Part shown: piece by piece, positions 2,401-22,376 of the stretch | Numbering within the stretch: the first letter of the stretch is position 1 | Layout of the letters: every line of letters starts with the position of its first letter | DNA from: Clostridia bacterium | GTDB taxonomy: Bacteria > Bacillota > Clostridia > Christensenellales > CAG-138 | Length of the DNA stretch: 64,000 nucleotides | NCBI GenBank assembly: GCA_045603585.1 | Contig: JAZUMK010000013.1 | Span: 45,914 to 109,913, forward strand | Reading direction: 5' to 3' | The notes under the pieces: model-generated | The model's input: the letters and a program-made list of their open reading frames with translations, nothing else | Database searches by the model: none | What the model was told of the DNA's origin: nothing | Translations under genes and position numbers: made by a program

Positions 2401-2795
2401 TGGAAACAGATATGCTGAAGCTTTCGGCTGTTGCGATTATCGCTCTGTGTGCCGTGCTGATACTGAGAAAGTATCGGGAGGAGCTTGCCATGCAGGTTGG
2501 CCTTGCTGCGGGAATAGTTATACTGTCAATGGCGGTAAAAACCGCAGGGGAAATATCCTCAATGGCCAACGGCATGATGGAAAGATACGGATTGGATCCT
2601 TTGGGGATGAAATCAGTAGCAAAGATGATCGGCATTGCGTATATAGCTCAGTTCAGCGCGGATACGTGCAGGGATTGCGGAGAAAGCTCTCTTGCAGGGA
2701 AGGTGGAGCTGGCAGGCAGATTGATGATGGTCACGGCGGCAATTCCCCTGATAACATCCACCGTGGAAGCAATAGGAGGGCTTATGGGACAATGA
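2400..2795 (+). CDS. spoIIIAD: Stage III sporulation protein AD
   Basis: 131-aa multi-TM protein in the SpoIIIAD position. Its start overlaps the spoIIIAC stop. Confidence 0.85.
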   Translation: METDMLKLSAVAIIALCAVLILRKYREELAMQVGLAAGIVILSMAVKTAGEISSMANGMMERYGLDPLGMKSVAKMIGIAYIAQFSADTCRDCGESSLAGKVELAGRLMMVTAAIPLITSTVEAIGGLMGQ

Positions 2796-3904
2796 AATGG
2801 ACAATATTGCTGCTGATGCTCATTTTGCTGCCGGGTATTGCAATGGCGGAGGAAGTGATAAGCGTACCGGCGGTGGAATACGATATAAGCCAATGGGAGC
2901 AGGCATGGCAGAATTTGCCGCTGGAGGTAAAAAGCTTGTTTGGCGGTATGTCAATAGGGCAGATACTGGAAAGCTATCGCAGCGGTGCAGCAGGAATAAT
3001 TGACGTACAGGGGATAAAAAAAGCGTTTTTATATGGTTTTAAAGAGGCCTTTGGAGCAATAGGGGCGCTGATTGGAGCGGCAATTATCATGGGATTGCTG
3101 GATATAATAATTGGCGGCAAAGAGGGGATAGGGGAAATGCTGCTGTTTTGTATAATGGGGCTTTGCATATCATCCATTACAAAGGCGGTATACAGCCAAT
3201 TTTCACAGGCTGCGGAAACCGTGAACGGAATATCCAGAATAACCGAGATGACCTCACCTGTGATGATGACACTTGTGGCTGCCTGCGGCTCTGCAAAGAC
3301 AGCCGCATCCTTGCCCGGGATAATATTGCTATGCAACGCCATAACAAATGGATTTAAAAAACTGGTTATGCCGCTGATACCAATAATGTGCGGGTTTACG
3401 GCGGCATCCTGTATAACAGGACAGGGACAGCTGAAAGCCATGGCAGATCTGTTGAAAAGCGTGATTAAATGGAGCATGGGAATGGCATTTGCGTTTTTTC
3501 TGGGGTCGGTCAGCATACGCAGCCTTAATGCATCCGGGCTGGACAGGGCGGGAATCAAAGCGATAAAGTACGCATTTGACAAATCCGTTCCTGTGGTGGG
3601 CGGTATGATATCCGGGACCTACGACGGTCTGCTGGCGGGGGCGGTGGTTTTAAAGAACGCGGCCGGCACCGCAGCGGTAATTTTGCTGATATTGTCTGCG
3701 CTGACTCCCGGGATAGCAATGCTGTCCACCATATTTGCGCTGAAGATCACCGGGGCGGTTTGCGGACTGTTTTCGGATAAGCGGATATCCGGAATGCTGG
3801 AAGGAGCTGCGGAAAGCTGTACATATATGTTTGCGGTTGCGGCAACGGCGGCGCTGATGAATCTTATAACCATATCCGCAACGCTTATTGCATCGGGGAT
3901 ATAA
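2792..3904 (+). CDS. spoIIIAE: Stage III sporulation protein AE
   Basis: MKWTILLLMLILLPGIAMA signal sequence followed by a polytopic membrane domain. ATG 2792 overlaps the spoIIIAD stop. The upstream part of track ORF 2447..3904 is an out-of-gene extension. Confidence 0.85.
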   Translation: MKWTILLLMLILLPGIAMAEEVISVPAVEYDISQWEQAWQNLPLEVKSLFGGMSIGQILESYRSGAAGIIDVQGIKKAFLYGFKEAFGAIGALIGAAIIMGLLDIIIGGKEGIGEMLLFCIMGLCISSITKAVYSQFSQAAETVNGISRITEMTSPVMMTLVAACGSAKTAASLPGIILLCNAITNGFKKLVMPLIPIMCGFTAASCITGQGQLKAMADLLKSVIKWSMGMAFAFFLGSVSIRSLNASGLDRAGIKAIKYAFDKSVPVVGGMISGTYDGLLAGAVVLKNAAGTAAVILLILSALTPGIAMLSTIFALKITGAVCGLFSDKRISGMLEGAAESCTYMFAVAATAALMNLITISATLIASGI

Positions 3905-3906
3905 GC

Positions 3907-4080
3907 ATGGATACCATAAACAATACTGCGATAAAAATAGTTGCGCTTTTTTCATGGGTCTGCATATTAAAGCTTATGCTGCCGGTCGGCACGATGAAGC
4001 GCAGCGCGGCAAAAGCTGTGGACATAGCAGCTATGCTGTCCCTCATAAGAATAATATCGGGAGTACTGCCAAATGGCTGA
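3907..4080 (+). CDS. spoIIIAF: Very short SpoIIIAF-like membrane protein (57 aa)
   Basis: Below the track's apparent ~60-aa size floor, so absent from it. Translation MDTINNTAIKIVALFSWVCILKLMLPVGTMKRSAAKAVDIAAMLSLIRIISGVLPNG* resembles the SpoIIIAF N-terminal TM region and occupies the AF slot. Confidence 0.55.
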   Translation: MDTINNTAIKIVALFSWVCILKLMLPVGTMKRSAAKAVDIAAMLSLIRIISGVLPNG

Positions 4081-4633
4081 AGAGAGAAGAAAACCAATAA
4101 TAGAAAAATTAGCGCTGAAGCTCAAGCAAAACAAAAAGCTGGAGCTTGGGGTTTACGGCGGTCTTGCGCTGCTTTGCCTGCTGCTTTGCATACCGGAGCG
4201 GAATGAAAGAAACGAGGCTGAGCTTCAGCCTGCGGCAGCCGCAGCGGAGGAGGATGAGCTGGAGCGGCGGCTGATGGATACGCTCAGCTGCGTGCGGGGA
4301 GCGGGCAGGGTAAAGGTGATGATAACCTACGATACCGGCACGGAAATCGTACCTGCCATGAATACCGATGTAACCTCCAGCGTAAGCGTATCCGGAGAAA
4401 ATCAGACGCTTACCGAGTCATCCTCTCCGATTACTGCTTATCAAGATGGAGAAAATCAGGCAATAGTTCTTATGGAAAAGCAGCCTGTGGTAAGGGGCGT
4501 TATTGTTGTGGCGCAGGGAGCCGCGGATATATCCGTAAGGCTGAAGCTTCAGGCTGCGGTGCAGGCAGTATTGGGAGTAGAGGCTGATAAGGTGGAGGTT
4601 TTGGAAATGGGAATGCAGGAAATGGAGGATTGA
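4073..4633 (+). CDS. spoIIIAG: Stage III sporulation protein AG
   Basis: N-terminal TM segment, acidic linker, and the C-terminal ...VVRGVIVVAQGAADISVRLKLQAAVQAVLGVEADKVEV typical of SpoIIIAG. Confidence 0.85.
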   Translation: MAEERRKPIIEKLALKLKQNKKLELGVYGGLALLCLLLCIPERNERNEAELQPAAAAAEEDELERRLMDTLSCVRGAGRVKVMITYDTGTEIVPAMNTDVTSSVSVSGENQTLTESSSPITAYQDGENQAIVLMEKQPVVRGVIVVAQGAADISVRLKLQAAVQAVLGVEADKVEVLEMGMQEMED

Positions 4634-5688: not shown

Positions 5689-6237
5689 ATGAAACCAAGG
5701 ATAATTGACAGGCTGCTGCTCATACTGCTGATGCTGGCAATTTTTGCGCTGGGTCTTGGCTTGCTGGCCATTTCTCTGGGCTTTGTTCCTATGAACATAG
5801 TAACGGATATAGTATCCTTCCCCTATCAGAGTGCCCGTAACGGCTGGATAACGGCAGGCGTTGGCCTGGTGCTCGTGCTTTGGGCCGTAAGGATGATAAT
5901 CGGCTTTAACAGGCGCGCAAGGAAAACCGGCCCCGCTACCGCCATAATCGCAAAAACCGAATTTGGCACCTCCACCATCACTTTGGCTGCCATTGACGAA
6001 ATGGTAAGGAGGCATTGCTCCGCAAACGAAAAGATCCTCAAGCAGGACAGCATGATATCCGTAAAGGATAACAACCTTGTGATAAACCTCAAGCTCAATC
6101 TTGCAGAGGATGCAAACGTGCCCGAGACCACCGCTGCCCTCCGCGAAAGCCTTACCGCATATATCCAAAACCTTACCGGCATAAAGGTTGGGGATATCAG
6201 CATGATGGTATCCACCCTGCCCGAACAGCAGGCATAA
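5689..6237 (+). CDS. amaP: Alkaline shock response membrane anchor protein (AmaP-like)
   Basis: N-terminal TM helices plus a soluble domain, in the canonical Asp23-AmaP-DUF2273 order. Confidence 0.7.
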   Translation: MKPRIIDRLLLILLMLAIFALGLGLLAISLGFVPMNIVTDIVSFPYQSARNGWITAGVGLVLVLWAVRMIIGFNRRARKTGPATAIIAKTEFGTSTITLAAIDEMVRRHCSANEKILKQDSMISVKDNNLVINLKLNLAEDANVPETTAALRESLTAYIQNLTGIKVGDISMMVSTLPEQQA

Positions 6238-7028: not shown

Positions 7029-7874
7029 ATGGGAAAGATAATCGACGGAAGAGCAGTTGCCGCAGAGGCCTGCACAAGTATAAATAGCAGGGTAGAGGCC
7101 CTTGTGGAGAATGGCGTGCAGCCCTGCCTTGCAGTTGTTCTGGTAGGCGATAATCCTGCATCCCGCGCTTACGTTGGCATGAAGGAAAAGAAAGCTGCAG
7201 AGCTTGGCATAAAGACCGTAGGCCATAAGCTTGCTGCGGATACCGCCGAAGCTGACCTGATAGCCCTTATTCATCAGCTTAATGAGGATGATTCTGTTCA
7301 TGGTATACTGGTTCAGCTGCCCCTTCCCGGACATATATCTGAGGAACGGGTGCTGCTGAATATTTCTCCCAAAAAGGACGTGGACGGCCTTCATCCCGAA
7401 AATGCAGGCATGCTGCTTACAGGCAGGGAGGGCTTTATTCCCTGTACTCCCAAGGGCTGCGTTATGCTGGTTGAAAGCACCGGAATGGATATCGGCGGCA
7501 AGCATTGCGTGGTTATCGGCAGAAGCAATATCGTAGGCAAGCCTGCGGCGCTGCTGATGCTTGCAAAGAATGCCACCGTTACCATGTGCCATTCCAGAAC
7601 CAAGGATCTTGGCGATTATACCAAAAAGGCCGATATTCTTATCTCCGCTGTTGGCGTGCCCAATCTTGTAACGGCGGATATGATAAAGCCCGGCGCGGTG
7701 GTTATAGACGTTGCACAGTGCCGCGTTGACGGTGCATGGAGAGGAGATGTGGACTTTGAGGCCGCTTTGGAAGTGGCGTCCCATATTACCCCTGTTCCCG
7801 GCGGCGTAGGCCCCATGACCATAGCTATGCTGATGGAAAATACTGTGGAGGCGGCAGAAAAGACCCTTGATTGA
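7029..7874 (+). CDS. folD: Bifunctional methylenetetrahydrofolate dehydrogenase/cyclohydrolase
   Basis: MGKIIDGRAVAAE..., ...HGILVQLPLP..., ...PGGVGPMTIAMLMENT motifs. Confidence 0.95.
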   Translation: MGKIIDGRAVAAEACTSINSRVEALVENGVQPCLAVVLVGDNPASRAYVGMKEKKAAELGIKTVGHKLAADTAEADLIALIHQLNEDDSVHGILVQLPLPGHISEERVLLNISPKKDVDGLHPENAGMLLTGREGFIPCTPKGCVMLVESTGMDIGGKHCVVIGRSNIVGKPAALLMLAKNATVTMCHSRTKDLGDYTKKADILISAVGVPNLVTADMIKPGAVVIDVAQCRVDGAWRGDVDFEAALEVASHITPVPGGVGPMTIAMLMENTVEAAEKTLD

Positions 7875-9075
7875 TAACGGCTACAGGTTTACTGTATCTC
7901 AGCTGAATGAATACGCAAACAGTCTGCTCAAAAGCGACAGCCTTTTGAGCCATGTTTGCGTATGCGGCGAAATAAGCGGCTTCAAGCGCCATTCCTCCGG
8001 ACATCTGTATTTTTCGCTGAAGGATGAGGGAGCCCTTATCCGCTGCGTAATGTTCAGGCAGAATGCATTTGCGCTGGATTTTTCCCCGCAGGATGGCCAG
8101 TCTGTGCTGATATACGGCAGCGTATCCATATATGCAAAGGATGGACAGTATCAGCTGTATGTGAATGCTATGGAGCGTCAGGGCGAGGGCGAACTGTATC
8201 GCCGCTTTATGCTGATGAAGACCCGCCTTGAGGCAAAGGGGTATTTTGCTCAGGAGCATAAAAAGCCAATACCCTATTTGCCCAAGTGCATAGGCGTAAT
8301 AACTTCCCCCACGGGAGCCGCAATACAGGACATAATAAACATAACCCGCAGACGCTTCCCCACAATGAACATACTGCTATATCCCGTAAGGGTACAGGGA
8401 GAGGGGGCAGCGGTGGAGATCGCCGAAGCTGTCAATGCCATGAACCGCATGAAAAAAGCGGACGTTCTGATAGTTGGCAGAGGCGGCGGAAGCATGGAAG
8501 ACCTATGGCCCTTCAATGAAGAAATCGTTGCAAAGGCCATATTTGAAAGCGAAATTCCTGTAGTAAGCGCCGTCGGTCACGAAACGGATTTTTCCATATC
8601 CGATTTTACCGCGGATTTGCGTGCGCCAACTCCTTCTGCTGCGGCGGAGCTGTGCGTTCCGGAATATGAGCGGCTGTATGGCGAGATCCTTGGCGCCCAA
8701 AGCTATATTTCAGAGCGCTGCCACAAGGAAATGGATTCACTTAAGCAGCAGCTTTCCGGCATACGGGATTCTGCGGCGTTCTCAATGACAAGGCACAGGG
8801 CGGAGCTGCTGAAGCAGGGGATAAAAGCCCGGCAGGAAAGCATGGGTATGGCTGTTCGCTCAGAGATAATCAATGCGCTTCATTCCATTGAAAAGCAGCA
8901 GTCGAGGCTCAGCGCCCTTTCTCCTGAAGCAGTGCTGGAGCGTGGTTACAGCCTTATCCGGCAGCATGGTGAATTTATAGGCAGCGCAGAGGAGCTGCAG
9001 GAAAATCAGCGGGCTTTGCTTATCATGAAGGACGGCAAAGCGGATATTACAATAGACAGCGTAAGCAGAGGATAA
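7867..9075 (+). CDS. xseA: Exodeoxyribonuclease VII large subunit
   Basis: FTVSQLNEYANSLL OB-fold N-terminus and GRGGGSMEDLWPFNEE motif. Uses a TTG start overlapping the folD stop. Confidence 0.9.
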   Translation: MIDNGYRFTVSQLNEYANSLLKSDSLLSHVCVCGEISGFKRHSSGHLYFSLKDEGALIRCVMFRQNAFALDFSPQDGQSVLIYGSVSIYAKDGQYQLYVNAMERQGEGELYRRFMLMKTRLEAKGYFAQEHKKPIPYLPKCIGVITSPTGAAIQDIINITRRRFPTMNILLYPVRVQGEGAAVEIAEAVNAMNRMKKADVLIVGRGGGSMEDLWPFNEEIVAKAIFESEIPVVSAVGHETDFSISDFTADLRAPTPSAAAELCVPEYERLYGEILGAQSYISERCHKEMDSLKQQLSGIRDSAAFSMTRHRAELLKQGIKARQESMGMAVRSEIINALHSIEKQQSRLSALSPEAVLERGYSLIRQHGEFIGSAEELQENQRALLIMKDGKADITIDSVSRG

Positions 9076-9285: not shown

Positions 9286-10170
9286 GTGGGATTTGCTGAA
9301 GAAACCAGAGAATACCGTGAAGTGATAGAATCTGCCCTGAGCGGATACATGGCAAATTGTGGAGCGCCCCGGCAGCTTCATGAGGCCATGGAATACAGCC
9401 TCAAGGCAGGGGGCAAGCGGCTTCGCCCTGTGCTGACCCTTTATACCTGCAATATGCTGGGCGGGGATTATCGCCGCGCAGTTCCTTATGCCTGTGCATT
9501 GGAGATGATCCATACATATTCCCTTATTCACGATGACCTTCCCTGCATGGATGACGACGATTTCCGCAGGGGCAGACCCTCAAACCATAAGGTGTTCGGC
9601 GAAGCAAATGCTGTATTGGCAGGAGACGGCCTGCTGTCATATGCGTTTGATATAATGCTGAATGCGGCAAAGACAGACCTTAGCGAAAACGCGATAAACG
9701 CAGCCCTTGCAGTTTCAAAGGGCGCAGGCGTAAGCGGGATGGTTGCAGGGCAGGTAATTGACCTGGCTTCTGAAACCGCGGAAAATACCGGAATCGATGA
9801 ACTGCGCTTTATTCAGGCCAACAAGACAGCGGCCATGATAAAGGCCGCAATACTTGCGGGCGCACATATTGCAGGCGCAAATCAGGAACAGCTTGCTGCC
9901 CTTGGCCAATTCGGTGAAGCTTATGGCGCGCTGTTCCAGATGACGGATGATATCTTGGATGTTGAGGGGGACTTTGAAGGCATGGGCAAGACCCTCGGCA
10001 AGGATCTGGAGGAGAATAAGCTTACATACATCTCCCTGTACGGAATGGATAAAGCCAAGGAACTGGCATGCCGGACGGCAGATAAAGCTGTAGAAGCCAT
10101 AGAAATATTCGGAGAAGGAGCGGCGCTGTTAAGGGATCTTGCAATAAGCTGCCTCAGCCGCCGCAGCTGA
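9286..10170 (+). CDS. ispA: Polyprenyl (farnesyl/geranylgeranyl) diphosphate synthase
   Basis: Two Asp-rich motifs, LIHDDLPCMDDDDFRRG and QMTDDILD. GTG start. Confidence 0.9.
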   Translation: MGFAEETREYREVIESALSGYMANCGAPRQLHEAMEYSLKAGGKRLRPVLTLYTCNMLGGDYRRAVPYACALEMIHTYSLIHDDLPCMDDDDFRRGRPSNHKVFGEANAVLAGDGLLSYAFDIMLNAAKTDLSENAINAALAVSKGAGVSGMVAGQVIDLASETAENTGIDELRFIQANKTAAMIKAAILAGAHIAGANQEQLAALGQFGEAYGALFQMTDDILDVEGDFEGMGKTLGKDLEENKLTYISLYGMDKAKELACRTADKAVEAIEIFGEGAALLRDLAISCLSRRS

Positions 10171-14493: not shown

Positions 14494-15714
14494 ATGAAAG
14501 AAAGAATGAAAAGCAGATATACAAGATGCATGGGCGTAATGCTGTGCATCGGATTGCTGTGCTTTAATTCAGGGGAGCAGATGAGCTATATCCGCAGCCT
14601 GCCGGATAAATTAACGCTGCAGCAGCTGGAGGAGCTAAAGGAGTGTGCGGATGGCCCCATTGGGCTGAGAGCTGGAGAAAGCCAACAAGTGGCAGGGGAT
14701 ATGTCTGAAAATTTATCAGACAATACCGTCAATGTCACATTGATGGGCATCCCAATCAGGCAGATGGTGGTATCTGCAAACAGCGATTTACGCCTTATGC
14801 CGGGCGGGGTGCCCATAGGCGTTTCAATATATACGGACGGAGTATTGGTGGTAGGCCTGGGCAGCGTAAAGGAAATGGAAAATATTTGCCCTGCTGCAGA
14901 TGGGGGGATAAAGGCAGGGGACGTGATAGTTTCGGTAAATGGAGAAGAGCTTGAGGATTCGCTGCATTTGAGCAGATTATGTTCGGCAGGCGGAGAGCTT
15001 AATATGACAATACGGCGGAATAATCAAATATCTTATCATACCGTGACACCAATATACGATGATGAGGCTGAGGCTTATCTTGCAGGAATGTGGGTCAGGG
15101 ACAGTACATCAGGCATTGGCACGCTGTCATATTGGGATATGCAAAGCGGGCGGTACGGTGCGCTGGGGCATCCCATTACGGATTCGGATACAGGCTCAGT
15201 AATAGACGTAAAGGATGGCAGCGTAATAAAATCCAACATTATCGGGGTATCTGCCGGTTCAAACGGTTCGCCGGGTGAAGTGATAGGCTCTTTTTCCTCC
15301 AACGGAGAAAAGTGGGGGGATATAGATATAAATTGCGAATTCGGCATTTACGGTGATGCTTCCGGCATGCCCGATAATCCCATTTATCCGGATGGCCTGC
15401 CAATCGGAAGGGCGGAGGAGGTTTACATAGGAGAGGCGGAAATACTCTGCACCGTAACGGATGGCGGGATTTCTGCATATGAGTGTGAAATTGTAAAGCT
15501 GTTTCCAAAGGACGAATCCGGCAGCAAGGGCATTGTGCTGAAGGTCACATCTTCGGAGCTTATCCAAATAACCGGCGGAATTGTGCAGGGCATGAGCGGC
15601 AGTCCGATTATTCAGGACGGCAAACTGGTGGGAGCGGTGACCCATGTGCTGGTGAATGATCCGACCAGAGGGTATGGGATTTTTATAGAAAATATGCTAG
15701 ATGCAGCAGGGTAA
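14494..15714 (+). CDS. spoIVB: SpoIVB peptidase (S55)
   Basis: PDZ-like [25 protein letters not shown] (His) and [37 protein letters not shown] (Ser). ATG 14494 (or 14488) follows the recN terminator. Confidence 0.9.
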   Translation: [406 protein letters not shown]

Positions 15715-15718
15715 AAGC

Positions 15719-15749
15719 ATGGCAGGGGCAGAAAGCCCCTGCCATTTTA
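15719..15749 (+). terminator. Rho-independent terminator after spoIVB
   Basis: 11-bp perfect stem ATGGCAGGGGC / GCCCCTGCCAT, 5-nt loop, TTTT tail. Confidence 0.8.
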
Positions 15750-15758
15750 GTTTACTAT

Positions 15759-15812
15759 AAAAGTGCAACTTCAAGTTGCACTTTTGCAAAAGTAGGTTGG
15801 TAGCATTAATAT
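15759..15812 (+). promoter_or_regulatory. Overlapping palindromes (candidate operator) fused to a sigma-A-type promoter for the XRE gene
   Basis: 13-bp arms AAAAGTGCAACTT-C-AAGTTGCACTTTT (15759-15785) overlap the 14-bp palindrome ACTTTTGCAAAAGT (15780-15793). TTGCAA (15784-15789), 17 nt, TAATAT (15807-15812). Confidence 0.5.
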
Positions 15813-15853
15813 GCTTTCTGCCTTAAAATTAAGACACCAAAGGAGGTGTTCAT

Positions 15854-16393
15854 ATGAGTTTTTCAGAAAATCTAAAACAAATCAGAAAAGAACATCATCT
15901 GTCTCAGGAAGAATTGGCGGAACTGCTGGATGTAAGCCGACAGGCTGTTTCAAAATGGGAGCAGGGACAGGGATATCCGGAAGTGGAAAAATTGCTGGTA
16001 CTGTCTTCTCAATTAAACATTTCGTTGGATGCGCTTATGTCCAATGAGATCGGCTGCGATCGTGGCTCAAAAGGTACAAACGTAACGGGCTCAATTGTTA
16101 TTACTTCTCCTCATGAGAACGTGATTGCAACCTGTTACAAGGTAGCTGCATCCGGCAAAATGCGTGGCGGAAAAAATTCTCCGCAGTATATATTGTTCGG
16201 TGTTGATCGAGGCGGTTCGAATTTCTGGGGAGAACCGACTACGTTTCTGGGGTGGTATGCCAGCGAAGAACAGATCTCAAAAGAAATTGCAGAAATTTAT
16301 AGAGCGATTTCGCAGGGGGTTCCAACTTATACACTGCAATTTAGCGCAAAGACTCAGCGCCGTTGGGCAAGTGTAAAGATAGTTGAAGAATGA
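15854..16393 (+). CDS. XRE-family HTH transcriptional regulator with an uncharacterised C-terminal domain
   Basis: N-terminus LKQIRKEHHLSQEELAELLDVSRQAVSKWEQGQGYPEVEKLLVLSSQLNISLDALM. The gene looks AT-richer than its flanks. Confidence 0.85.
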   Translation: MSFSENLKQIRKEHHLSQEELAELLDVSRQAVSKWEQGQGYPEVEKLLVLSSQLNISLDALMSNEIGCDRGSKGTNVTGSIVITSPHENVIATCYKVAASGKMRGGKNSPQYILFGVDRGGSNFWGEPTTFLGWYASEEQISKEIAEIYRAISQGVPTYTLQFSAKTQRRWASVKIVEE

Positions 16394-16427
16394 CTAAAAC
16401 TGTTGTCCCTAATGACAATCATCCGTG

Positions 16428-16535
16428 TCGGGCTCACCCATCATTTAGAATGGGAAACTGGTGGGTGCCGTTACTCACGTGCTGGTGAATGATCCGACGA
16501 GAGGGTATGGGATTTATATTGAAAATATGCTTTAG
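16428..16535 (+). pseudogene. Orphan, decayed copy of the spoIVB 3' end
   Basis: Translates as [34 protein letters not shown], collinear with codons at 15595-15699 of the intact gene (~80% nt identity by hand alignment). It has an internal TAG. Confidence 0.8.
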
Positions 16536-16553
16536 GCAACGGGGGGGATGATT

Positions 16554-16583
16554 TTGCAGGGAAGGTTTGCCCCTGCAATTTTC
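16554..16583 (+). terminator. Terminator following the spoIVB remnant, related to the one at 15719-15749
   Basis: Stem TTGCAGGG / CCCTGCAA followed by TTTT. It shares the GCAGGG...CCCTGC core with the spoIVB terminator. Confidence 0.6.
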
Positions 16584-16650
16584 CATGTTTGTATGATACA
16601 ATAGTATTGCTTGATTATTGTATTTAGAGGACAAAACAGGAGCGCTGCCT

Positions 16651-17292
16651 ATGAAAATATTGGTAACAGGCTTTGAGCCGTTTGACGGAGAAAAGATAAA
16701 TCCTTCACAGCAAATTGTACACCGTCTGGTAGCACCGGAAGGTACAAGCCTTATAAAGGCAATTTTGCCGGTGGAATTTACAGGGGCTGCCGCGCAGTTG
16801 TGCACGCTGCTTGGGGGGCATAATCCGGATGCGGTGCTGTCCATTGGCCAGGCAGGAGGGCGTGCGGAAATCAGCATTGAGCGCGTTGCCATCAATATAG
16901 ACTGTGTAAAAAGTTCTGACGGCAGCGACCTGCTGCCGGATAATGCGGGGAATATGCCCGTTGATAAACCTATTGAATTGGATGGCCCGGCGGCATATTT
17001 TACAACGCTGCCCATGTGGGAGATAGTGGAAGCTATACGGCAAAACGGTATACCTGCTGCTGTTTCCAATTCTGCAGGTACATTTGTCTGCAATCATGTT
17101 ATGTATGTTAGCCTGCATCAGGCTGCTGTGCATTACCCAAGCATGAAGGCAGGTTTTATCCATGTGCCATTTTTACCTGAACAAATTATTAATAAAGATG
17201 AGCGGCATAGGCCGGCGGCCATGTCCATTGACGATATGGTTTCGGCATTGCAAACAGCACTGGAAGTGTTGGCAAAGGGCTGGGAAAAGTGA
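16651..17292 (+). CDS. pcp: Pyroglutamyl-peptidase I (pyrrolidone-carboxylate peptidase)
   Basis: MKILVTGFEPFDGEKINPS..., ...SNSAGTFVCNHVMY (Cys nucleophile), ...GFIHVP. Confidence 0.9.
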   Translation: MKILVTGFEPFDGEKINPSQQIVHRLVAPEGTSLIKAILPVEFTGAAAQLCTLLGGHNPDAVLSIGQAGGRAEISIERVAINIDCVKSSDGSDLLPDNAGNMPVDKPIELDGPAAYFTTLPMWEIVEAIRQNGIPAAVSNSAGTFVCNHVMYVSLHQAAVHYPSMKAGFIHVPFLPEQIINKDERHRPAAMSIDDMVSALQTALEVLAKGWEK

Positions 17293-17392
17293 CGATACAA
17301 ATCAAAGCAGGAGTGCTTGCTTCTGCTTTTTTGGTTGCATATGCTATCATATATAAAGGATCACATTGAAATGCTACAAACAGAGGCGTTCC

Positions 17393-18007
17393 ATGATAGA
17401 TAAGGAAAATATATGGGATAAGCTATTAAAAGTAAAAACAACCGGCCGGGATGATTCCAACTCCGACCAGTACCGTTATCCCTATGAGCCAACGCCGTAC
17501 AGCGTTTTGGAGCGATTGGCCAACAGCGGTTTTATCGGCAAAAAAGATGTGGTACTGGACTATGGCTGCGGCAAGGGACGCGTAGATTTTTTTCTGTCCT
17601 ATCAGACCAAAGCGGCTGCCGTGGGAATTGAATACGACGAACGGATTTACAGCAGCGCCACAGAAAATCAGAAGACTGCCCTTTCCAGAACAAGGACGAA
17701 ATTTGTGCTTGCGAGAGCGGAAGCGTATGAAGTGCCCGAGCAAGTGAACAGATTTTATTTCTTCAATCCCTTTTCTGTGGAGATACTGCATAAGGTCATT
17801 GCGAGAATACTTGATTCCTATTATGAAAATCCAAGGGAGGCCTTCTTGTTCTTCTATTATCCATCCGAGGAGTATGTTTCGTATCTGATGACAGTGGATG
17901 AACTGGAATTTTACGAAGAGATACCTTGCGGCGATTTATTCCAGGGGGATGACCCGAGGGAAAGGATCTTGATTTTTTTATTGCCTTATAAGAATGATGT
18001 ATCCTGA
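17393..18007 (+). CDS. Class I SAM-dependent methyltransferase
   Basis: VVLDYGCGKGRVDFFL motif I. AGAGG RBS precedes ATG 17393. Confidence 0.7.
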   Translation: MIDKENIWDKLLKVKTTGRDDSNSDQYRYPYEPTPYSVLERLANSGFIGKKDVVLDYGCGKGRVDFFLSYQTKAAAVGIEYDERIYSSATENQKTALSRTRTKFVLARAEAYEVPEQVNRFYFFNPFSVEILHKVIARILDSYYENPREAFLFFYYPSEEYVSYLMTVDELEFYEEIPCGDLFQGDDPRERILIFLLPYKNDVS

Positions 18008-18034
18008 AAGAAGTGTAAATAATACGGCAATATA

Positions 18035-18066
18035 AAAGGCAGGGGATAATCCCTGCCTTTGGTTTT
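18035..18066. terminator. Bidirectional terminator between convergent genes
   Basis: 10-bp perfect stem AAAGGCAGGG / CCCTGCCTTT with A/T-rich runs on both sides. Confidence 0.75.
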
Positions 18067-18072
18067 AAACGT

Positions 18073-19056
18073 TTATTGCAGCGGCTGCACCTTCAAAAGG
18101 GCTGCCTTTGTTTTTTCATCTGCAAAGGAGGCTTCTATGGCATAGTTGTTCATCCGTACGATATCTTCATCCGTAAAGCCCATTCTGCGGCAAAGGTCGT
18201 ATTCCTTTTCAAGGTCGGTATCCAGCACCGTAAGGTTGTCGGTATTTACCGTGACACGTGCGCCTTTTTTATACAGCACATACAATGGGTGTGTCTGGTC
18301 GCAGGAGAGACCGTATTCGTAGGAAAGGCTGCTGTCGGGACACATTTCCAGCGTTACTTTGCGGGCGATCACCTGCTGGGTCAAGGCGGGGTCAAGAGCG
18401 GCCTGATAGCCGTGGCCTATGCGGGAGGTGCCGTATTTAAGGGCTTCGCCAACGGTGAATTCACTGTGGGTTGTGGCGGGGATGCCAAGGAAGCGGGCCA
18501 GCTCAAAAATATCTGCAAATTCGGGCATGCGTTCCTCATAGCCGGCCATATCCACAGCGCAAACGCCCTTGCCGAGATATTTGGCGGCAAGGCGTACGGT
18601 TTCCATGTTTTCCGCGTGATTTTCGGCAGGGTCGCAATGGTTCATGGCGCATAGAATCAGCCCGGCTTTCAGTGCGGCGCAGTTATGCAAGCCTTCGTTA
18701 AGCCCCTGAATGGCGGCCAATACAGCATCTTCCTGTGTCATGCCGCCATTTAGATGGTATTGAGGGGCAAAGCGCAGCTCGGCATAGATCAATCCTTCTT
18801 TATCCAGCCGCTCCACCAGCTCCCGGGTGATACGGCAAATTCCTTCGGGAGTCTGCATCACCCTGAGGGGAGGATCGAATGTAAGAAAATCCGGATCGTA
18901 CTCACCCTCGGGAATTGTCATGGAGTGCCGTATTTCATCAAGCGACATATCACATTCCGGATGAATATTGTATTTGCGTGCAAGCTCAAAAACCGTCTCA
19001 GGCTTTGCGGAGCCGTCAATATGCAGATGTAGATCTGTTTTATTGAGTATTTTCAT
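18073..19056 (-). CDS. add: Adenosine deaminase family protein
   Basis: DLHLHIDGS metal-binding start, ...GHGY..., ...VTVNTDN... motifs. 327 aa. Confidence 0.85.
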   Translation of the reverse strand: MKILNKTDLHLHIDGSAKPETVFELARKYNIHPECDMSLDEIRHSMTIPEGEYDPDFLTFDPPLRVMQTPEGICRITRELVERLDKEGLIYAELRFAPQYHLNGGMTQEDAVLAAIQGLNEGLHNCAALKAGLILCAMNHCDPAENHAENMETVRLAAKYLGKGVCAVDMAGYEERMPEFADIFELARFLGIPATTHSEFTVGEALKYGTSRIGHGYQAALDPALTQQVIARKVTLEMCPDSSLSYEYGLSCDQTHPLYVLYKKGARVTVNTDNLTVLDTDLEKEYDLCRRMGFTDEDIVRMNNYAIEASFADEKTKAALLKVQPLQ

Positions 19057-19209
19057 AATTTATCCTCCCAGTATGGGTATATAACAATTATACAACAGGG
19101 GAGCATTTTACCCAAGGCAGATAATTAACAAATGGCCTTTTTTACTATACAAGTAAATATCTGTTTGATAATATAGATATCATCAGGCAAATCTATTAAG
19201 GTAAAAAAC

Positions 19210-19971
19210 ATGGGAAAGATAAAACGAAACAGCATCATCAAAAGAATAATAATCATGACTGCATTTGCGGCATTGATCAGTGTATTTTCCGGATGCGGTA
19301 GCAATACCTGTCGGGTGGATTATTGCGGCCAGGAAGCGCTTTACAGAGGTCATAAAGAACGGTATGAGCCGGGTGAGCAGGTTGAGTTTTATTATAAGCG
19401 CAGCGATTCGGACGGGGAGTATACCTTCTTTCTGGGCGAAAAACAGATTGTTCCGGTGCCGTACAGTGAAGATGAAGATATTATATGGTTTGTAATGCCG
19501 GATAAAGAGGTTAAGCTTGAGCGGGTCAAAAACAGCGAAATAAAGGCGGAGCATATGGTTGGGCGCGATATTCTGCTGGTGAATTATTATAGGGAAACCG
19601 TGGCTGCCGCAGATGGGGACGGCTATTTTGAGATGGTGCTCAGCACGACAGAAGAGGCAGATAAAGCCGCGCTCAATGTATATCGCAAAGACGAGGGAGA
19701 GGATGAAACCTGCAGAAGCTATATAGTCCCCTTTGAAGCTGTTGAGAGGTGCTATCAGGCAATTATAGAGAGCGATATGCGGGGATGGAATGAGCTAGAA
19801 AACTCAATTAGTGCTGACGGAGCATTGACGGTATGCAAATTCAGGTTTGGCGATACTGTGCTGCGTATCACATCGGAATCCATGCCTGCGGATGGAGAGG
19901 CTGCCCTGGATAATATCAGGGAGATAATGTCTGGATATATGCAGGATGCGTATTTTGCAGGCGAATGGTAA
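19210..19971 (+). CDS. Hypothetical lipoprotein
   Basis: Signal peptide with lipobox ...LISVFSGC. No recognisable domain. Confidence 0.6.
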   Translation: MGKIKRNSIIKRIIIMTAFAALISVFSGCGSNTCRVDYCGQEALYRGHKERYEPGEQVEFYYKRSDSDGEYTFFLGEKQIVPVPYSEDEDIIWFVMPDKEVKLERVKNSEIKAEHMVGRDILLVNYYRETVAAADGDGYFEMVLSTTEEADKAALNVYRKDEGEDETCRSYIVPFEAVERCYQAIIESDMRGWNELENSISADGALTVCKFRFGDTVLRITSESMPADGEAALDNIREIMSGYMQDAYFAGEW

Positions 19972-20010
19972 TAAGTTTATAACTCAAGCAAGAGGGACGG
20001 AGCAAAAGCT

Positions 20011-20742
20011 ATGAAAAAGCTGTATAAAAAAGAACCCATATGGTTTGCGGTATTGTGGATAGTTATATATGTGGTATGCTTCAGCGCGGCGGATGGAATA
20101 TCCGAAAGCATGGGCATGCCCAAACTCATTACGGCATTGGTTGGATTGCTGCTGTCCATCATGCTTATCGGATTTATCAGGCGGGAAGGCCTGACGGAGC
20201 ATTTTGGTCTGTGCGGGTTTAAGGGAAACAAAAGGGACTTTCTCTTTTTTATTCCGTTGATAGTTATTTCTTCGGTTAATCTGTGGAATGGGCTGCAGCT
20301 TCAGTGTTCTGCGACTGAAGCGGCATTGGGCGTAATCAGTATGTGCTTTGTGGCGATCCTGGAGGAAGTTATCTTCCGCGGATTGCTTTTTAAAGGCATG
20401 AGCGAGGATAACCTGAAGATCGCGGTTATTGTTTCATCACTTACATTCGGCTTCGGGCATATAGTAAATCTGCTGCTGGGTGAGCCGATATTTGAAACGC
20501 TGCTGCAGCTCGTTTATGCTTCTGCCGTTGGTTTTTGCTTTACTGCGGTATTTATTGCCGGAGGCAGCGTTATACCCTGTATCCTTTCTCATGCAGCGGT
20601 AAATTGTTTCAGTATTTTTGCGGTTCAGCCTTCTGACGGAGGGATTGTGCTTATAGCGGCTGTGCAGACAGTTGTCAGCACACTGTACGGCGTATGGCTG
20701 CTGAAAAGGCACAGCGCTGCAAATAAGCAAACTTCAGCATAA
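20011..20742 (+). CDS. CPBP-family intramembrane glutamic endopeptidase (CAAX protease/Abi-like)
   Basis: Motifs AILEEVIFRGLLF and FGFGH.... Confidence 0.8.
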   Translation: MKKLYKKEPIWFAVLWIVIYVVCFSAADGISESMGMPKLITALVGLLLSIMLIGFIRREGLTEHFGLCGFKGNKRDFLFFIPLIVISSVNLWNGLQLQCSATEAALGVISMCFVAILEEVIFRGLLFKGMSEDNLKIAVIVSSLTFGFGHIVNLLLGEPIFETLLQLVYASAVGFCFTAVFIAGGSVIPCILSHAAVNCFSIFAVQPSDGGIVLIAAVQTVVSTLYGVWLLKRHSAANKQTSA

Positions 20743-20826
20743 TATGGCGGTTTGTCGCTTACAGTGGTATTATATAAAAAAATACAGCTTTTGCCGTTTC
20801 TGTATCAAACGTCAGCAAGGAGATAT

Positions 20827-21507
20827 ATGAAAAAGACGTTTTATTCGGAGATGGCTTATTTTATTGGCATAATCCTGCTTGCGCTGGGCACGGCAATGAT
20901 GGAGCAGGCGAATTTCGGCATGTCCATGGTGGTTGCACCGGCATATCTGCTTCATTTGAAGGTATCGGAAACATTCTCGTTTTTCTCATTCGGCATGGCG
21001 GAGTATGTATTGCAGGGCGTGCTGCTGATAATCATGTCGCTGGTATTGAGACGATTTAAAAAGGCCTATCTTTTTTCCTTTATTACCGCGGTATTTTACG
21101 GTTTTGCGCTGGATGCCATGCTGAGCCTGATGGGGTATGTGCAAAGCGACGGAATGGCGCTGAGGGTGTTTTTCTACATAGGGGGCATGATAGTATGCGC
21201 CATCGGTATAGCGATGCTGTTTCATACCTATATACCTCTTGAAGCATACGAGATGTTTGTTAAAGAGGTGTCCGCAAAAATAGGGATGGATATCAATAAA
21301 TTCAAAACCATTTACGATTGCACAAGCTGCGCCATAGCGGTAATAATGTCATTTGCGTTCTTTGGCTTTGGACAATTTGAAGGGGTAAAACTGGGCACCG
21401 TGCTGTGTGCATTGGTAAACGGATGGATGATAGGCCAATGCTCAAAACGGCTTGAGCAGCTGTTTGAGTTTACAGACGGCACAAAGCTGGCGGAATTTTT
21501 CAGGTAG
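20827..21507 (+). CDS. Polytopic membrane protein (YczE/DUF6198-like)
   Basis: MKKTFYSEMAYFIGIILLALGTAMMEQANFGMSMVVAPAY... AGGAGA RBS precedes ATG 20827. Confidence 0.55.
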   Translation: MKKTFYSEMAYFIGIILLALGTAMMEQANFGMSMVVAPAYLLHLKVSETFSFFSFGMAEYVLQGVLLIIMSLVLRRFKKAYLFSFITAVFYGFALDAMLSLMGYVQSDGMALRVFFYIGGMIVCAIGIAMLFHTYIPLEAYEMFVKEVSAKIGMDINKFKTIYDCTSCAIAVIMSFAFFGFGQFEGVKLGTVLCALVNGWMIGQCSKRLEQLFEFTDGTKLAEFFR

Positions 21508-21605
21508 CCGCATAAAAATTAACGTTCCGGTTGGAAAGAGATGGAAAAAGTGGTAAAATATATATGATGATAATCTGAATAAAAATGATAACGGAAGGGC
21601 TGCCT

Positions 21606-22376
21606 ATGAAAATTCTTATTGCAAAGGAACATAGCGCATACTGCCACGAGCTGGCAGACTATTTGGGCAAAATGTCAATATTTGATATTATGCCCTTTGC
21701 CCATGACGGATATCAGACAATACAGAATATCGCCATCGAAAAGCCCGACGTATTGCTGCTGGATGCGGTACTTCCCAATATGGATGGTATAGGCGTACTG
21801 AAAAAGCTGAATGCCATGAGATTATCAGAGGGAATACGTATACTGGTAATGGCTCCCTTCAAGGATGATGAAATGATAGATAAGCTGATGAGGCTTGGCG
21901 CACTGTACGTAATACAGCTTCCTGCGGTGCCTTCTCAGGTATTCAGCCGGATTGTGGATTTTGCCATAGATGACGATTTAGTCAGAAAAGAAGCAGAGGA
22001 AAGAAAAGAGAACAATCGTACAGAGCTGAGGGATAAGGTAATAACAAATTACTTTTATGCCATAAGAGCGCCTCTCAATCTCCTGGGATACAAACTGGCA
22101 AGGGCTGCGGTGACCTATTGCGTGGATAATTACAATGCTCAGCCATACATAACCAAAGAAGTATATCCCTTTGTTGCAGAGCTTTTTAATTCCACTCCAA
22201 AGCAGGTGGAACGAAATATCCGCACATTCATCGAAGCCACGTGGCAGCGGGGCGATATGGAAAACATAAACAAGCTTTTCGGATACTCCGTCAGCCAGCA
22301 TAAGGGACGTCCTACCAATAAAGAGTTTATCGCGTTGCTTACAGAGCGCAGCGTTATGCGCATCCGCCAAGGTTAG
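21606..22376 (+). CDS. spo0A: Spo0A-family sporulation regulator with an atypical receiver domain
   Basis: The C-terminal domain ITKEVYPFVAELFNSTPKQVERNIRTFIEATWQRGDMENINKLFGYSVSQHKGRPTNKEFIALL is a clear Spo0A_C domain. The N-terminal receiver fold keeps LLLDAVLPNMDG. Confidence 0.85.
   Translation: MKILIAKEHSAYCHELADYLGKMSIFDIMPFAHDGYQTIQNIAIEKPDVLLLDAVLPNMDGIGVLKKLNAMRLSEGIRILVMAPFKDDEMIDKLMRLGALYVIQLPAVPSQVFSRIVDFAIDDDLVRKEAEERKENNRTELRDKVITNYFYAIRAPLNLLGYKLARAAVTYCVDNYNAQPYITKEVYPFVAELFNSTPKQVERNIRTFIEATWQRGDMENINKLFGYSVSQHKGRPTNKEFIALLTERSVMRIRQG

Follow-up and report, generated by a model that had tools for sequence, protein, structure and literature searches.

The 3' end of spoIVB in the window (the whole 64-kb stretch of DNA that was analyzed) appears to hold a small gene cassette, which is probably one of many that stack at this position in gut spore-formers and that are moved by serine recombinases of larger islands elsewhere. 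The segment from 15595 to 16427 is read here, with good though not full confidence, as an 833-bp nonautonomous gene cassette that was inserted by conservative site-specific recombination at a TG dinucleotide of spoIVB, likely through the action in trans of a triplet of large serine recombinases (LSRs). In order, the cassette consists of a spare spoIVB tail, a terminator, its own promoter/operator, a gene for an XRE regulator, and a 27-nt end motif. The features of the locus are as follows.

14494 to 15714, plus strand: spoIVB, intact, 406 amino acids (aa), of which the last 120 nt are the putatively cassette-borne tail
15571 to 15594, plus strand: putative attL host-side half-site (B arm), ending in the ATG Met codon; proposed exchange dinucleotide TG at 15593 to 15594
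15595 to 15714, plus strand: T1, the putative replacement spoIVB tail, from the catalytic Ser codon to the stop, predicted to be cassette borne
15719 to 15749, plus strand: intrinsic terminator after T1, formed by a GC-rich stem of 11 bp and a T run and belonging to the conserved module of the cassettes
15760 to 15784, plus strand: perfect palindrome of 25 nt, AAAGTGCAACTTCAAGTTGCACTTT, the likely operator of the XRE regulator, which overlaps the promoter of the cassette
15854 to 16393, plus strand: cargo gene for an XRE-family regulator, 179 aa (Pfam HTH_3, E = 1.7e-16)
16394 to 16427, plus strand: P arm, the conserved cassette end motif and putative attP-derived half of attR, with its core at 16401 to 16427 (TGTTGTCCCTAATGACAATCATCCGTG) and the proposed exchange TG at 16426 to 16427
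16428 to 16544, plus strand: T2, a displaced older spoIVB tail, probably native and now a pseudogene fragment, with stops at 16446 to 16448 and 16533 to 16535
16545 to 16572, plus strand: degenerate terminator after T2, with a 7-bp stem (TGCAGGG/CCCTGCA) and TTTT, not called by the terminator scan

The predicted SpoIVB protein matched Pfam family Peptidase_S55 over profile positions 2 to 210 of 210 (E = 2.2e-79) and also contained a PDZ domain. A reading of the locus from sequence alone (here called the sequence-only reading) had proposed that foreign DNA supplied a replacement 3' end and left a scar resembling an attL/attR pair, and this full-length match supports it. A skin-like intervening element of a sporulation gene was rejected as a candidate, since spoIVB is intact and its S55 match full length with the element in place. 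A recognizable att pair bounds the cassette (B-T junction, 15571 to 15714; P-T junction, 16394 to 16544), and the interior holds one cargo gene, the XRE regulator, without genes for integration or transfer. Between the tail copies, the GC content was 43.2%, versus 48.3% for the window. As the sequence-only reading had stated, no integrase is left nearby: tblastn with an LSR query gave no match within the 64 kb. Further att remnants were not found between the displaced tail and spo0A (16545 to 21584; nhmmer with P-T and P-only profiles), and no known RNA families were detected in the 14- to 18-kb region of the window at an E value of ≤0.1.

Gene order in the window (nadK-argR-recN-spoIVB) was the same as in two relatives, L084 and L002. 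Empty sites, for which the earlier reading had suggested looking in relatives, were present in three related genomes (L002, L226, and L227), with spo0A ~100 nt downstream of spoIVB. The cassette itself was common to the window and L084, at a divergence like that of the hosts, and because this relative has the same cassette, the window copy looks old, and vertical inheritance in common with L084 is probable. What this means in practice for the window is limited: it has an old cassette that is probably immobile, together with the decaying remnant of a gene.

The two copies of the spoIVB tail (15595 to 15699 and 16428 to 16532) aligned without gaps (blastn, E = 1.4e-25; E = 1e-23 against the whole window), and blastn found no third copy in the window. 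The last ~35 codons had been said to recur with about 21 differences in 105 nt, mostly synonymous; the count was exactly 21 of 105, and a recount returned the same three exceptions (CAG>TAG, D>N, and F>Y). Two Ser codons changed class between the copies (AGC>TCG and AGT>TCA). By the Nei-Gojobori method, with the stop codon left out, dS was 0.89, dN was 0.094, and dN/dS was 0.11, values indicative of divergence of the tail copies under purifying selection. T2 contained two premature stops and was 70.9% identical to the T2 of L084, versus 81% for T1, 86.5% for the XRE gene, and 78 to 86% for functional parts overall, which indicates that T2 evolves faster than the functional parts. The stops, the lower identity, and the degenerate terminator bear out the earlier suggestion that the displaced native end is decaying, and T2 of the window should be treated as a decaying gene fragment and not annotated as a gene.

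Two direct-orientation copies of a gene 3' end, ~0.8 kb apart, could in principle have arisen without any insertion, by an ancient tandem duplication of the end of spoIVB or as the template and variable repeats of a diversity-generating retroelement. This explanation is highly improbable given the empty sites in relatives, the horizontal mobility of the intervening DNA, and mismatches that are not adenine specific and lie in a catalytic, invariant region. The retroelement was rejected separately: the differing bases of the second copy were T, C, G, and A without pattern, and no reverse transcriptase-like ORF was evident among those listed nearby (ORFs of the 12- to 20-kb region of the window, only four of which were scanned against Pfam).

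The terminators after the two copies, described previously as related, were related only in part, because the hairpin after the second copy is weak. Terminator 1 formed a strong hairpin (15719 to 15745; 11 bp, −27.1 kcal/mol, z = −4.8), and hairpins of the GACAGGGGC...GCCCCTGTC type followed most tails compared in other loci, as they do T1. The hairpin after T2 (16545 to 16567) was no better than shuffled sequence (z = −0.78).

The sequence-only reading correctly described the segment between the copies as AT richer, with a palindrome and one XRE gene, but overlooked the conserved 27-nt motif at 16401 to 16427, which directly abuts the upstream side of the second copy. The window motif has one mismatch to the 22-mer form of the motif (0.01 chance matches expected), and a profile of 101 other motif-plus-tail sites matched the window at 16394 to 16543 (E = 2.7e-40). 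The motif or a variant of it preceded every nongenic tail in nine loci retrieved by protein similarity. In a metagenome scan that used the motif alone, a query that carries no spoIVB information, a spoIVB tail directly followed the motif at 110 of 128 testable sites, with a truncated tail at 10 more. Loci L086 to L205 were retrieved with the motif itself, and motif conservation among them is inflated because the motif was the search query.

Homology between the copies had been placed as starting abruptly inside the codons for the catalytic GxSGSP, and it begins directly after the TG of the Met codon, with GGCATG upstream in the first copy and TCCGTG in the second. The codon before the tail was ATG in 117 of 118 genic copies (base −3, A) and GTG in 105 of 117 motif-preceded copies (base −3, G), with TG invariant at both types of junction. 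The arms to the left of the TG, B arm and P motif, were unrelated, and the ratio of AGY to TCN Ser codons did not differ between the two kinds of junction. Right-hand identity ended exactly at the GTG in three pairs of cassettes that were 97 to 99.8% identical and lay in unrelated contexts. These patterns place the exchange point at the TG that is invariant in the GMSGSP Met codon, with TG as the putative cleavage dinucleotide. By eye, the consensus of the P-T junction suggested a possible dyad symmetry, TAAT-N12-TG-N12-ATTA, with 10 of 25 positions symmetric.

Under the proposed mechanism, a cassette in circular form would have an attP in which TG links the motif (P arm) to a tail (T), and in the chromosomal attB, TG would link the host arm (B) to the host's own tail. 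Recombination at this dinucleotide would fuse the 5' part of the host spoIVB in frame to the cassette tail, so that the SpoIVB protease would remain intact; the tail 3' of the junction (T1) would therefore be part of the incoming cassette. The previous tail would be displaced downstream behind the P arm (16428 to 16544), where it would then decay. The products, B-T and P-T, would be of the same types as the substrates, so that the site could take up further cassettes, and the arrays at other loci would thereby be explained. The evidence for this mechanism is comparative; neither a circular form nor a pair of empty and occupied alleles from one strain turned up among the sequences. The attP and attB sites would have the right half-site in common, which is unusual for serine integrases.

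Homologous recombination alone, with the tails serving as portable homology for Campbell-type insertion or replacement by RecA once DNA has been taken up and without a dedicated recombinase, would account for the mosaic tails and for the patchy homogenization of copies within one locus (L016, L036, and L056). It would also account for the left boundaries of shared cassettes, which lay at variable points inside the tail (approximately nt 20, 45 to 50, or 80) and not at TG, so that a model of site-specific exchange has to assume gene conversion or homologous exchange between tails as an additional step. However, Campbell insertion would leave cassette sequence in the tail beyond the motif, whereas identity ends at the GTG, and neither a 27-nt motif that is unrelated to host sequence and conserved across cassettes with unrelated cargo nor the LSR genes that abut the motif would be explained. 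Tails of different hosts, moreover, like all tails compared, are only ~80% identical over 120 nt and would be a poor RecA substrate. Homologous recombination as the sole process is thus unlikely, and the earlier suggestion of a cassette swapped in by this route holds for the mosaic left boundaries but not for the sharp right boundary at TG.

Site-specific exchange would need an enzyme, and the gene found most commonly directly upstream of the motif encoded an LSR (~17 loci, with the gene ending ~10 nt before the motif). A full triplet of LSR genes (~550, 570, and 530 aa) was in view in 10 or 11 of these ~17 loci, with the Pfam domains Resolvase, Recombinase, and Zn_ribbon_recom in all three proteins, and the arrangement of triplet and motif recurred in L214 to L225. 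Some motif-linked LSR loci lay in islands of >21 kb with BREX genes, and some triplets adjoined sequence that was tail-like over 22 nt only. A two-step walk toward the left end of an island, >21 kb upstream of the last recombinase, found no tail; because this end was never reached, a replacement tail on the islands is deduced from the small cassettes. The likely enzyme would be the LSR triplet of the big islands, which terminate in a P-T junction of the same kind, and we infer that these LSRs catalyze the exchange and mobilize recombinase-less cassettes in trans. The window copy was rejected as an LSR integrative element in its own right, since it encodes no LSR; in related loci, LSR triplets end ~10 nt before the motif.

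The cargo protein comprises an N-terminal HTH and an uncharacterized, beta-rich C-terminal domain of 110 aa that had no match in Pfam, NCBIfam, or PHROGs. Its AlphaFold2 model had a pLDDT of 91, and Foldseek comparison to the PDB returned essentially matches to the HTH domain only. More than 100 homologues with 83 to 94% identity were found, mostly on contigs of only ~1 kb. The palindrome, which folds as a hairpin (z = −4.2), was conserved ahead of the XRE gene at 11 of 12 XRE loci (L210 excepted) and was seen nowhere else in >200 loci; the XRE protein may repress its own promoter, with the palindrome as its operator. A role as a regulator of the LSR islands received no support, given that the palindrome occurred only upstream of XRE genes and the HTH was 32 to 34% identical to those of island regulators.

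The XRE cassette was located after spoIVB in at least six different gene neighborhoods. XRE proteins were 84 to 87% identical between hosts whose SpoIVB bodies were only 33 to 36% identical, and the cassette boundaries were constant, with the XRE gene starting 151 nt past the spoIVB stop and the motif lying 7 nt past the XRE stop. These observations bear on the possibility that a large island integrated once and that deletions left the XRE gene alone (classical CIME formation), the XRE unit never having moved. The host-like divergence of the window and L084 cassettes, the decay of attR in several lineages, and the existence of islands with the same attR are what such an in-place relic would leave behind, but it would be hard put to explain a same-boundary XRE cassette in hosts with 33 to 42% SpoIVB-body identity, at first or later array positions. 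In addition, no XRE homologue of >34% identity and no operator palindrome occurred in the island sequence read (island left ends not seen), and other recombinase-less cassettes were 97 to 99.8% identical in unrelated contexts; there is thus little likelihood that the XRE unit is such a relic. The sequence-only reading had envisaged a stripped-down relic or a recombined cassette: the lack of a recombinase stands, and the one-off in-place relic gives way to membership in a large family of recombinase-less cassettes.

Across this family, the sequences compared indicate a unit of tail, terminator, promoter, cargo, and motif. There were 58 distinct recombinase-less cassettes (315 to 3,460 bp; median, 971 bp), the cargo of which matched 55 Pfam families in all, and arrays held up to five motif sites. 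Cassettes occurred on both strands (41 minus and 39 plus) and had their own extended −10 elements. The genes upstream of spoIVB varied between hosts, and none was a recombinase.

Pseudo-SCC elements, composite islands, and CIMEs come closest to the spoIVB cassette system, which is a variant of that kind. The Ccr large serine recombinases move SCC, pseudo-SCC, and composite islands, which occupy the 3' end of orfX/rlmH (PMC6243372). Both systems have a conserved gene that stays intact although serine recombinases act on its 3' end (putatively so for spoIVB), recombinase-less elements (pseudo-SCC) at the same site, tandem stacking with repeated att sites in between, and more than one recombinase paralogue (PMC6243372). 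In contrast to SCC, which has a shared core of ~15 nt, the spoIVB target lies at the catalytic serine, ~120 nt within the coding sequence, and each element must therefore bring a 120-nt replacement tail and terminator; the spoIVB units are tiny (median, ~1 kb; in most cases a single gene under its own promoter), whereas SCC elements are several to tens of kilobases; and spoIVB islands have three recombinases and SCC one or two (PMC6243372). The hosts of the spoIVB system, which is described here from sequence comparison, are gut Clostridia.

CIMEs and tandem accretion are described at ICE and IME att sites, such as the fda 3' end in Streptococcus thermophilus (PMC5704250). The likeness lies in attL/attR-flanked elements whose integration and transfer genes were lost or never present, in accretion at the same site, and in a duplicated gene end that keeps the target gene intact (PMC5704250). 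The classical cases in that review use tyrosine integrases, however, and CIMEs are described as products of decay in place (PMC5704250), whereas the spoIVB units are near-identical across unrelated hosts and array positions, which suggests that the recombinase-less units move as such. Serine integrase triplets of Firmicutes ICEs likewise consist of three consecutive LSR genes at the extremity of the element by the att site and act site specifically inside a protein-coding gene, but their targets (mutT, traG, and hsdM) are disrupted, with direct repeats of 2 to 8 bp left (PMC4701971), whereas spoIVB is restored by a 120-nt replacement end. The literature searched contained no report that brought spoIVB together with serine recombinase, or with both integrase and attB, and none that named it as a triplet target.

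The arrays also resemble integrons, though in logic only. Small, mostly single-gene, recombinase-less cassettes with very diverse cargo are arrayed at one chromosomal site, a conserved recombination site ends each cassette, and insertion adjoins a fixed platform site. Unlike integrons, the spoIVB system lacks both an IntI tyrosine recombinase and an attC hairpin site, its putative recombinase is unlinked to the platform, and its cassettes carry their own promoters in both orientations. An integron proper was rejected for the locus on similar grounds: no recombinase lies upstream of spoIVB, the cassettes have their own promoters and lie on both strands, and the repeated unit consists of a coding tail and a terminator rather than an attC. 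Classical integrons are essentially not known from Gram-positive anaerobes.

A broader proposal is put forward tentatively, as plausible but somewhat short of probable: that the region of the spoIVB catalytic-Ser codon in gut Clostridia is an integron-like platform for serine-recombinase cassettes, with B-T in the role of attI and P-T in that of attC. Promoter-bearing, recombinase-less cassettes of ~0.3 to 3.5 kb would be captured, stacked, excised, and exchanged among distant spore-formers, with LSR triplets acting in trans from unlinked BREX islands and the spare module from catalytic serine to stop serving as the insertion ticket. If this mechanism is true, Gram-positive anaerobes would have their own cassette-array system of integron-like logic, built on serine recombinases, the target of which would be the catalytic core of a sporulation checkpoint protease whose gene is repaired by a portable gene end. 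The clustering of accessory genes in the spoIVB-spo0A interval of gut spore-formers would be explained, as would the fragmentation of metagenome assemblies at the spoIVB locus, where most XRE-cassette contigs are ~1 kb. Natural att sites and triple recombinases that reuse one site repeatedly would also be of interest for iterative genome integration.

A plasmid search returned a match limited to the HTH part of the XRE protein, at ~75%. A phage origin was rejected: the 22-nt motif had no exact match in 2.9 million viral contigs, and blastn against phage records matched the tail only. The three records labeled "Bacteriophage sp." that were inspected (MT835504, MT835737, and MT835614) are bacterial nadK-argR-recN-spoIVB-spo0A fragments, not phage.

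The sequence-only reading had taken the region 3' of spoIVB for an attL/attR-like insertion scar, in which a duplicated spoIVB end brackets a small XRE cassette. The region carried nadK, argR, and recN, followed by these features:

14494-15714, spoIVB
15595-15699, end of spoIVB, genic copy
15787-15853, 5' leader of the XRE gene
15854-16393, XRE-family gene
16401-16427, cassette end motif, abutting the displaced copy
16428-16532, second (displaced) copy of the spoIVB end, 3' of the XRE gene and followed by pcp
16545-21584, interval between the displaced copy and spo0A
21585-22376, spo0A

Ungapped comparison of the two spoIVB ends gave 21 mismatches in 105 nt, and the pair matched significantly by BLASTN (E = 1.4e-25), with no third copy found in the window. 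Codon by codon, the divergence was mostly synonymous, as had been claimed: in 13 codons the difference was confined to the third position, two Ser codons had switched class (AGC>TCG and AGT>TCA), and the nonsynonymous differences were CAG>TAG, D>N, and F>Y. Values of dS (0.89) and dN/dS (0.11; Nei-Gojobori) indicated that both ends were under protein-level constraint while diverging. Terminators had been described behind both copies; a strong one was found 3' of the genic copy (z = -4.8), but only a weak hairpin followed the second (z = -0.8). The cassette interior was AT-richer, as described (43.2% GC versus 48.3% in the window).

Loci with spoIVB from 80 species-representative genomes and loci encoding close XRE homologues (L numbers) were compared with the window. 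Extra copies of the tail (catalytic Ser codon of GMSGSP to the stop) were present in 7 of the 80 species loci, with a maximum of four tails per locus. Almost every nongenic tail was preceded by aaaTGTTGTCCCTAATGACAATCACTCGTG, abutting the Ser codon of GMSGSP. The window motif had one mismatch to the motif 22-mer (0.01 chance matches expected), and a profile from 101 other motif-plus-tail sites matched window positions 16394-16543 (E = 2.7e-40) and, elsewhere in the window, the genic tail only. Scanning metagenome contigs with a 21-nt motif-only pattern yielded 120 loci, in which the spoIVB tail directly followed the motif at 110 of 128 testable sites; the others had a truncated tail (10/128) or unrelated sequence (8/128). 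The association of motif and tail was unbiased because the pattern held no spoIVB sequence, and motif conservation within these loci is inflated, the loci having been retrieved by motif. In a few loci, displaced tails followed variant motifs, TGTTGTCACTTATTAATATCAATGGTG and TGTTGTCCCCTATTGACAACAGTC[AG]TG (L016, ~9350-9375; L036, ~5912-5938; L056 [L056-2], ~8848-8874), which suggests further recombinase lineages sharing the TG junction. After the motif and GTG, other loci carried TGCGGATCACCAATCATACAACAACAATCC... (L214, L215, and L217, 11601-11720; L219, 8878-9000; also L135 and L116), which was tail-like for the first ~22 nt only; the next ~88 nt were conserved and unrelated to spoIVB, and contexts then differed (IS3-family transposase gene, tRNA). 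These loci may represent a tail-less variant or a secondary site.

Immediately before the tail, genic copies had the codon ATG (117 of 118), and copies preceded by the motif mostly had GTG (105 of 117). TG was invariant at both junction types, and the ratio of AGY to TCN serine codons after each was the same. Left of TG, host arm and motif were unrelated; right of TG, the tail was found in all copies. For three near-identical cassette pairs from unrelated contexts (L115/L183, 99.8%; L005/L185, 98.7%; L081/L180, 96.9%), right-hand identity ended exactly after GTG. Serine recombinases work by conservative exchange at a central dinucleotide, and so sharp a junction is what such exchange at TG would give. 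Exchange there implies a mobile unit made up of tail, terminator, cargo, and motif; such a unit would insert at TG and leave behind its motif a tail belonging to the previous occupant. The left limit of shared identity lay inside the tail (~nt 45-50 or 80), and homogenization among tails of one locus was patchy; to account for this, a further step of homologous exchange or of gene conversion between tandem tails has to be assumed.

Large serine recombinases (LSRs) formed the largest clusters among ORFs just 5' of the motif. An LSR gene ended ~10 nt before the motif in ~17 loci, and in 10 to 11 of these a complete triplet was in view (~550, 570, and 530 aa), all three proteins containing the Pfam domains Resolvase, Recombinase, and Zn_ribbon_recom. 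The same arrangement was present in six further long contigs. Islands ending in triplet and motif reached >21 kb upstream in long contigs L220 to L225 (e.g., L220, 1-21524), with the left end beyond the sequence read, and carried a BREX system (PglX-like methyltransferase, PglZ, and BrxL), an Mrr-like nuclease, a Y-family polymerase, an ImmA/XRE pair, and a MazF-like toxin. The triplets most likely operate the site; its enzymology, mobilization in trans, and the left-end structure of the islands we infer. In a second element class, a single LSR gene (535 to 558 aa) stopped ~25 nt short of a partial spoIVB tail beginning at the T-H-V codons (L090, ~2643-4350; L184, ~3344; L199, 4094-5870; L057, 7637), implying a putative second attachment site ~45 to 50 nt into the tail, used by a different recombinase family.

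Complete units without recombinases numbered 68 (58 distinct) and measured 315 to 3,460 bp (median, 971 bp). A single ORF (≥70 aa) was present in 39 of the 58 distinct cassettes, on either strand, and sequences 3' of the terminators resembled, by reading, extended -10 promoters. The 58 representative ORFs matched 55 Pfam families in all, including XRE, GNAT, AraC, RhuM, YhcG nuclease, BspA-type LRR, and VanZ; a CHAP domain was found separately. The largest array contained five motif sites (locus L172). The small units are a cassette population, not isolated wrecks. Many unrelated cassettes shared a ~40-nt stretch with a short hairpin (CCATGYA...GTGCATGGCTGTTTTGCACCTGAAAAAA) just 5' of the motif (e.g., L140, 108-147; L182, 1196-1235; L185, 3749-3788; L192, 931-970), which the XRE cassette lacked.

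More than 100 homologues of the XRE protein were found at 83 to 94% identity, mostly on ~1-kb contigs, as would be expected if tail repeats fragment assemblies; wherever contigs were longer, the gene lay 3' of spoIVB, in six or more distinct gene neighborhoods. XRE proteins of L081 and L085 were 87% and 84% identical to that of the window, versus 33% and 35.5% for the SpoIVB body without tail, which indicates that the cassette has traveled between only very distantly related hosts and kept its boundaries. Motif or displaced tail has since been lost in several lineages (L085, L206, L210, and L213). Identities between window and L084 (recN, 85.5%; spoIVB body, 78%; genic tail, 81%; XRE, 86.5%; motif, 85%; displaced tail, 71%) look like vertical inheritance with a decaying displaced tail and a cassette old in the window lineage. 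Relatives had empty sites: spo0A lay ~100 nt after spoIVB in L002, the closest of the species representatives that have long flanks, and just after it in L226 and L227. The repeat described in the sequence-only reading is confirmed and its insertion-scar interpretation is supported; the window itself holds an old, probably immobile cassette, and the gene end displaced by it is decaying. The native SpoIVB C terminus of L002 was divergent (...NDAKCGYCIYAWWMNSVCGKLP; 7107-7236). Occupied loci of very different hosts shared a canonical C terminus (85 to 95% identity over the last 40 aa; 33 to 42% over the rest of SpoIVB), and mobile tails may be homogenizing this end across lineages. L226 (MT835504.1), L227 (MT835737.1), and L228 (MT835614.1), from human fecal viromes, are labeled "Bacteriophage sp." in GenBank; they were rejected as phage genomes, being ordinary bacterial chromosome fragments, with the order nadK-argR-recN-spoIVB in L226 and L228.

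The interest of the window element lies in the cassette-stacking site it reveals beyond the window, which appears to be undescribed and widespread in gut spore-formers; no literature linking spoIVB to such elements was found. Among known systems, the staphylococcal SCC family comes closest: its serine recombinases target the 3' end of orfX and leave the gene intact, the pseudo-SCC elements carry no recombinase, and elements can line up in tandem as composite islands (PMC6243372). Conceptually equivalent are CIMEs and the accretion of elements at ICE/IME att sites (PMC5704250). The serine integrase triplets known from Firmicutes ICEs are described as disrupting their targets and leaving 2- to 8-bp repeats (PMC4701971), and serine-recombinase IMEs as disrupting dispensable genes (PMC5704250). 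In contrast to these systems, the target in spoIVB lies 120 nt within the coding sequence, where the catalytic serine is encoded; every element brings a replacement tail and terminator, and the units are of miniature size and carry promoters of their own. In their logic the arrays resemble integrons, but IntI and attC are absent.

The XRE protein consisted of an N-terminal HTH and a beta-rich C-terminal domain, confidently modeled (pLDDT 91); no family or fold assignment was found for the latter, nor any link between the protein and island regulation. A 25-nt perfect palindrome overlapping the XRE promoter was conserved upstream of XRE genes only, which points to autoregulation. The leader (15787-15853) was conserved across hosts and contained a second small palindrome (GCATTAATATGC) and a hairpin pairing with the ribosome-binding region (GACACC...GGTGTT); extra regulation by these elements is possible.

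The displaced tail and spo0A were separated by ~5 kb (~100 nt in empty-site relatives), containing pcp, a methyltransferase gene, an adenosine deaminase gene (minus strand), and three more ORFs. A search of 16545-21584 for att remnants found none, and the interval may be older cargo with eroded sites. Homologues of the methyltransferase (71 to 82% aa identity) were also located 3' of the arrays in L081 and L084.
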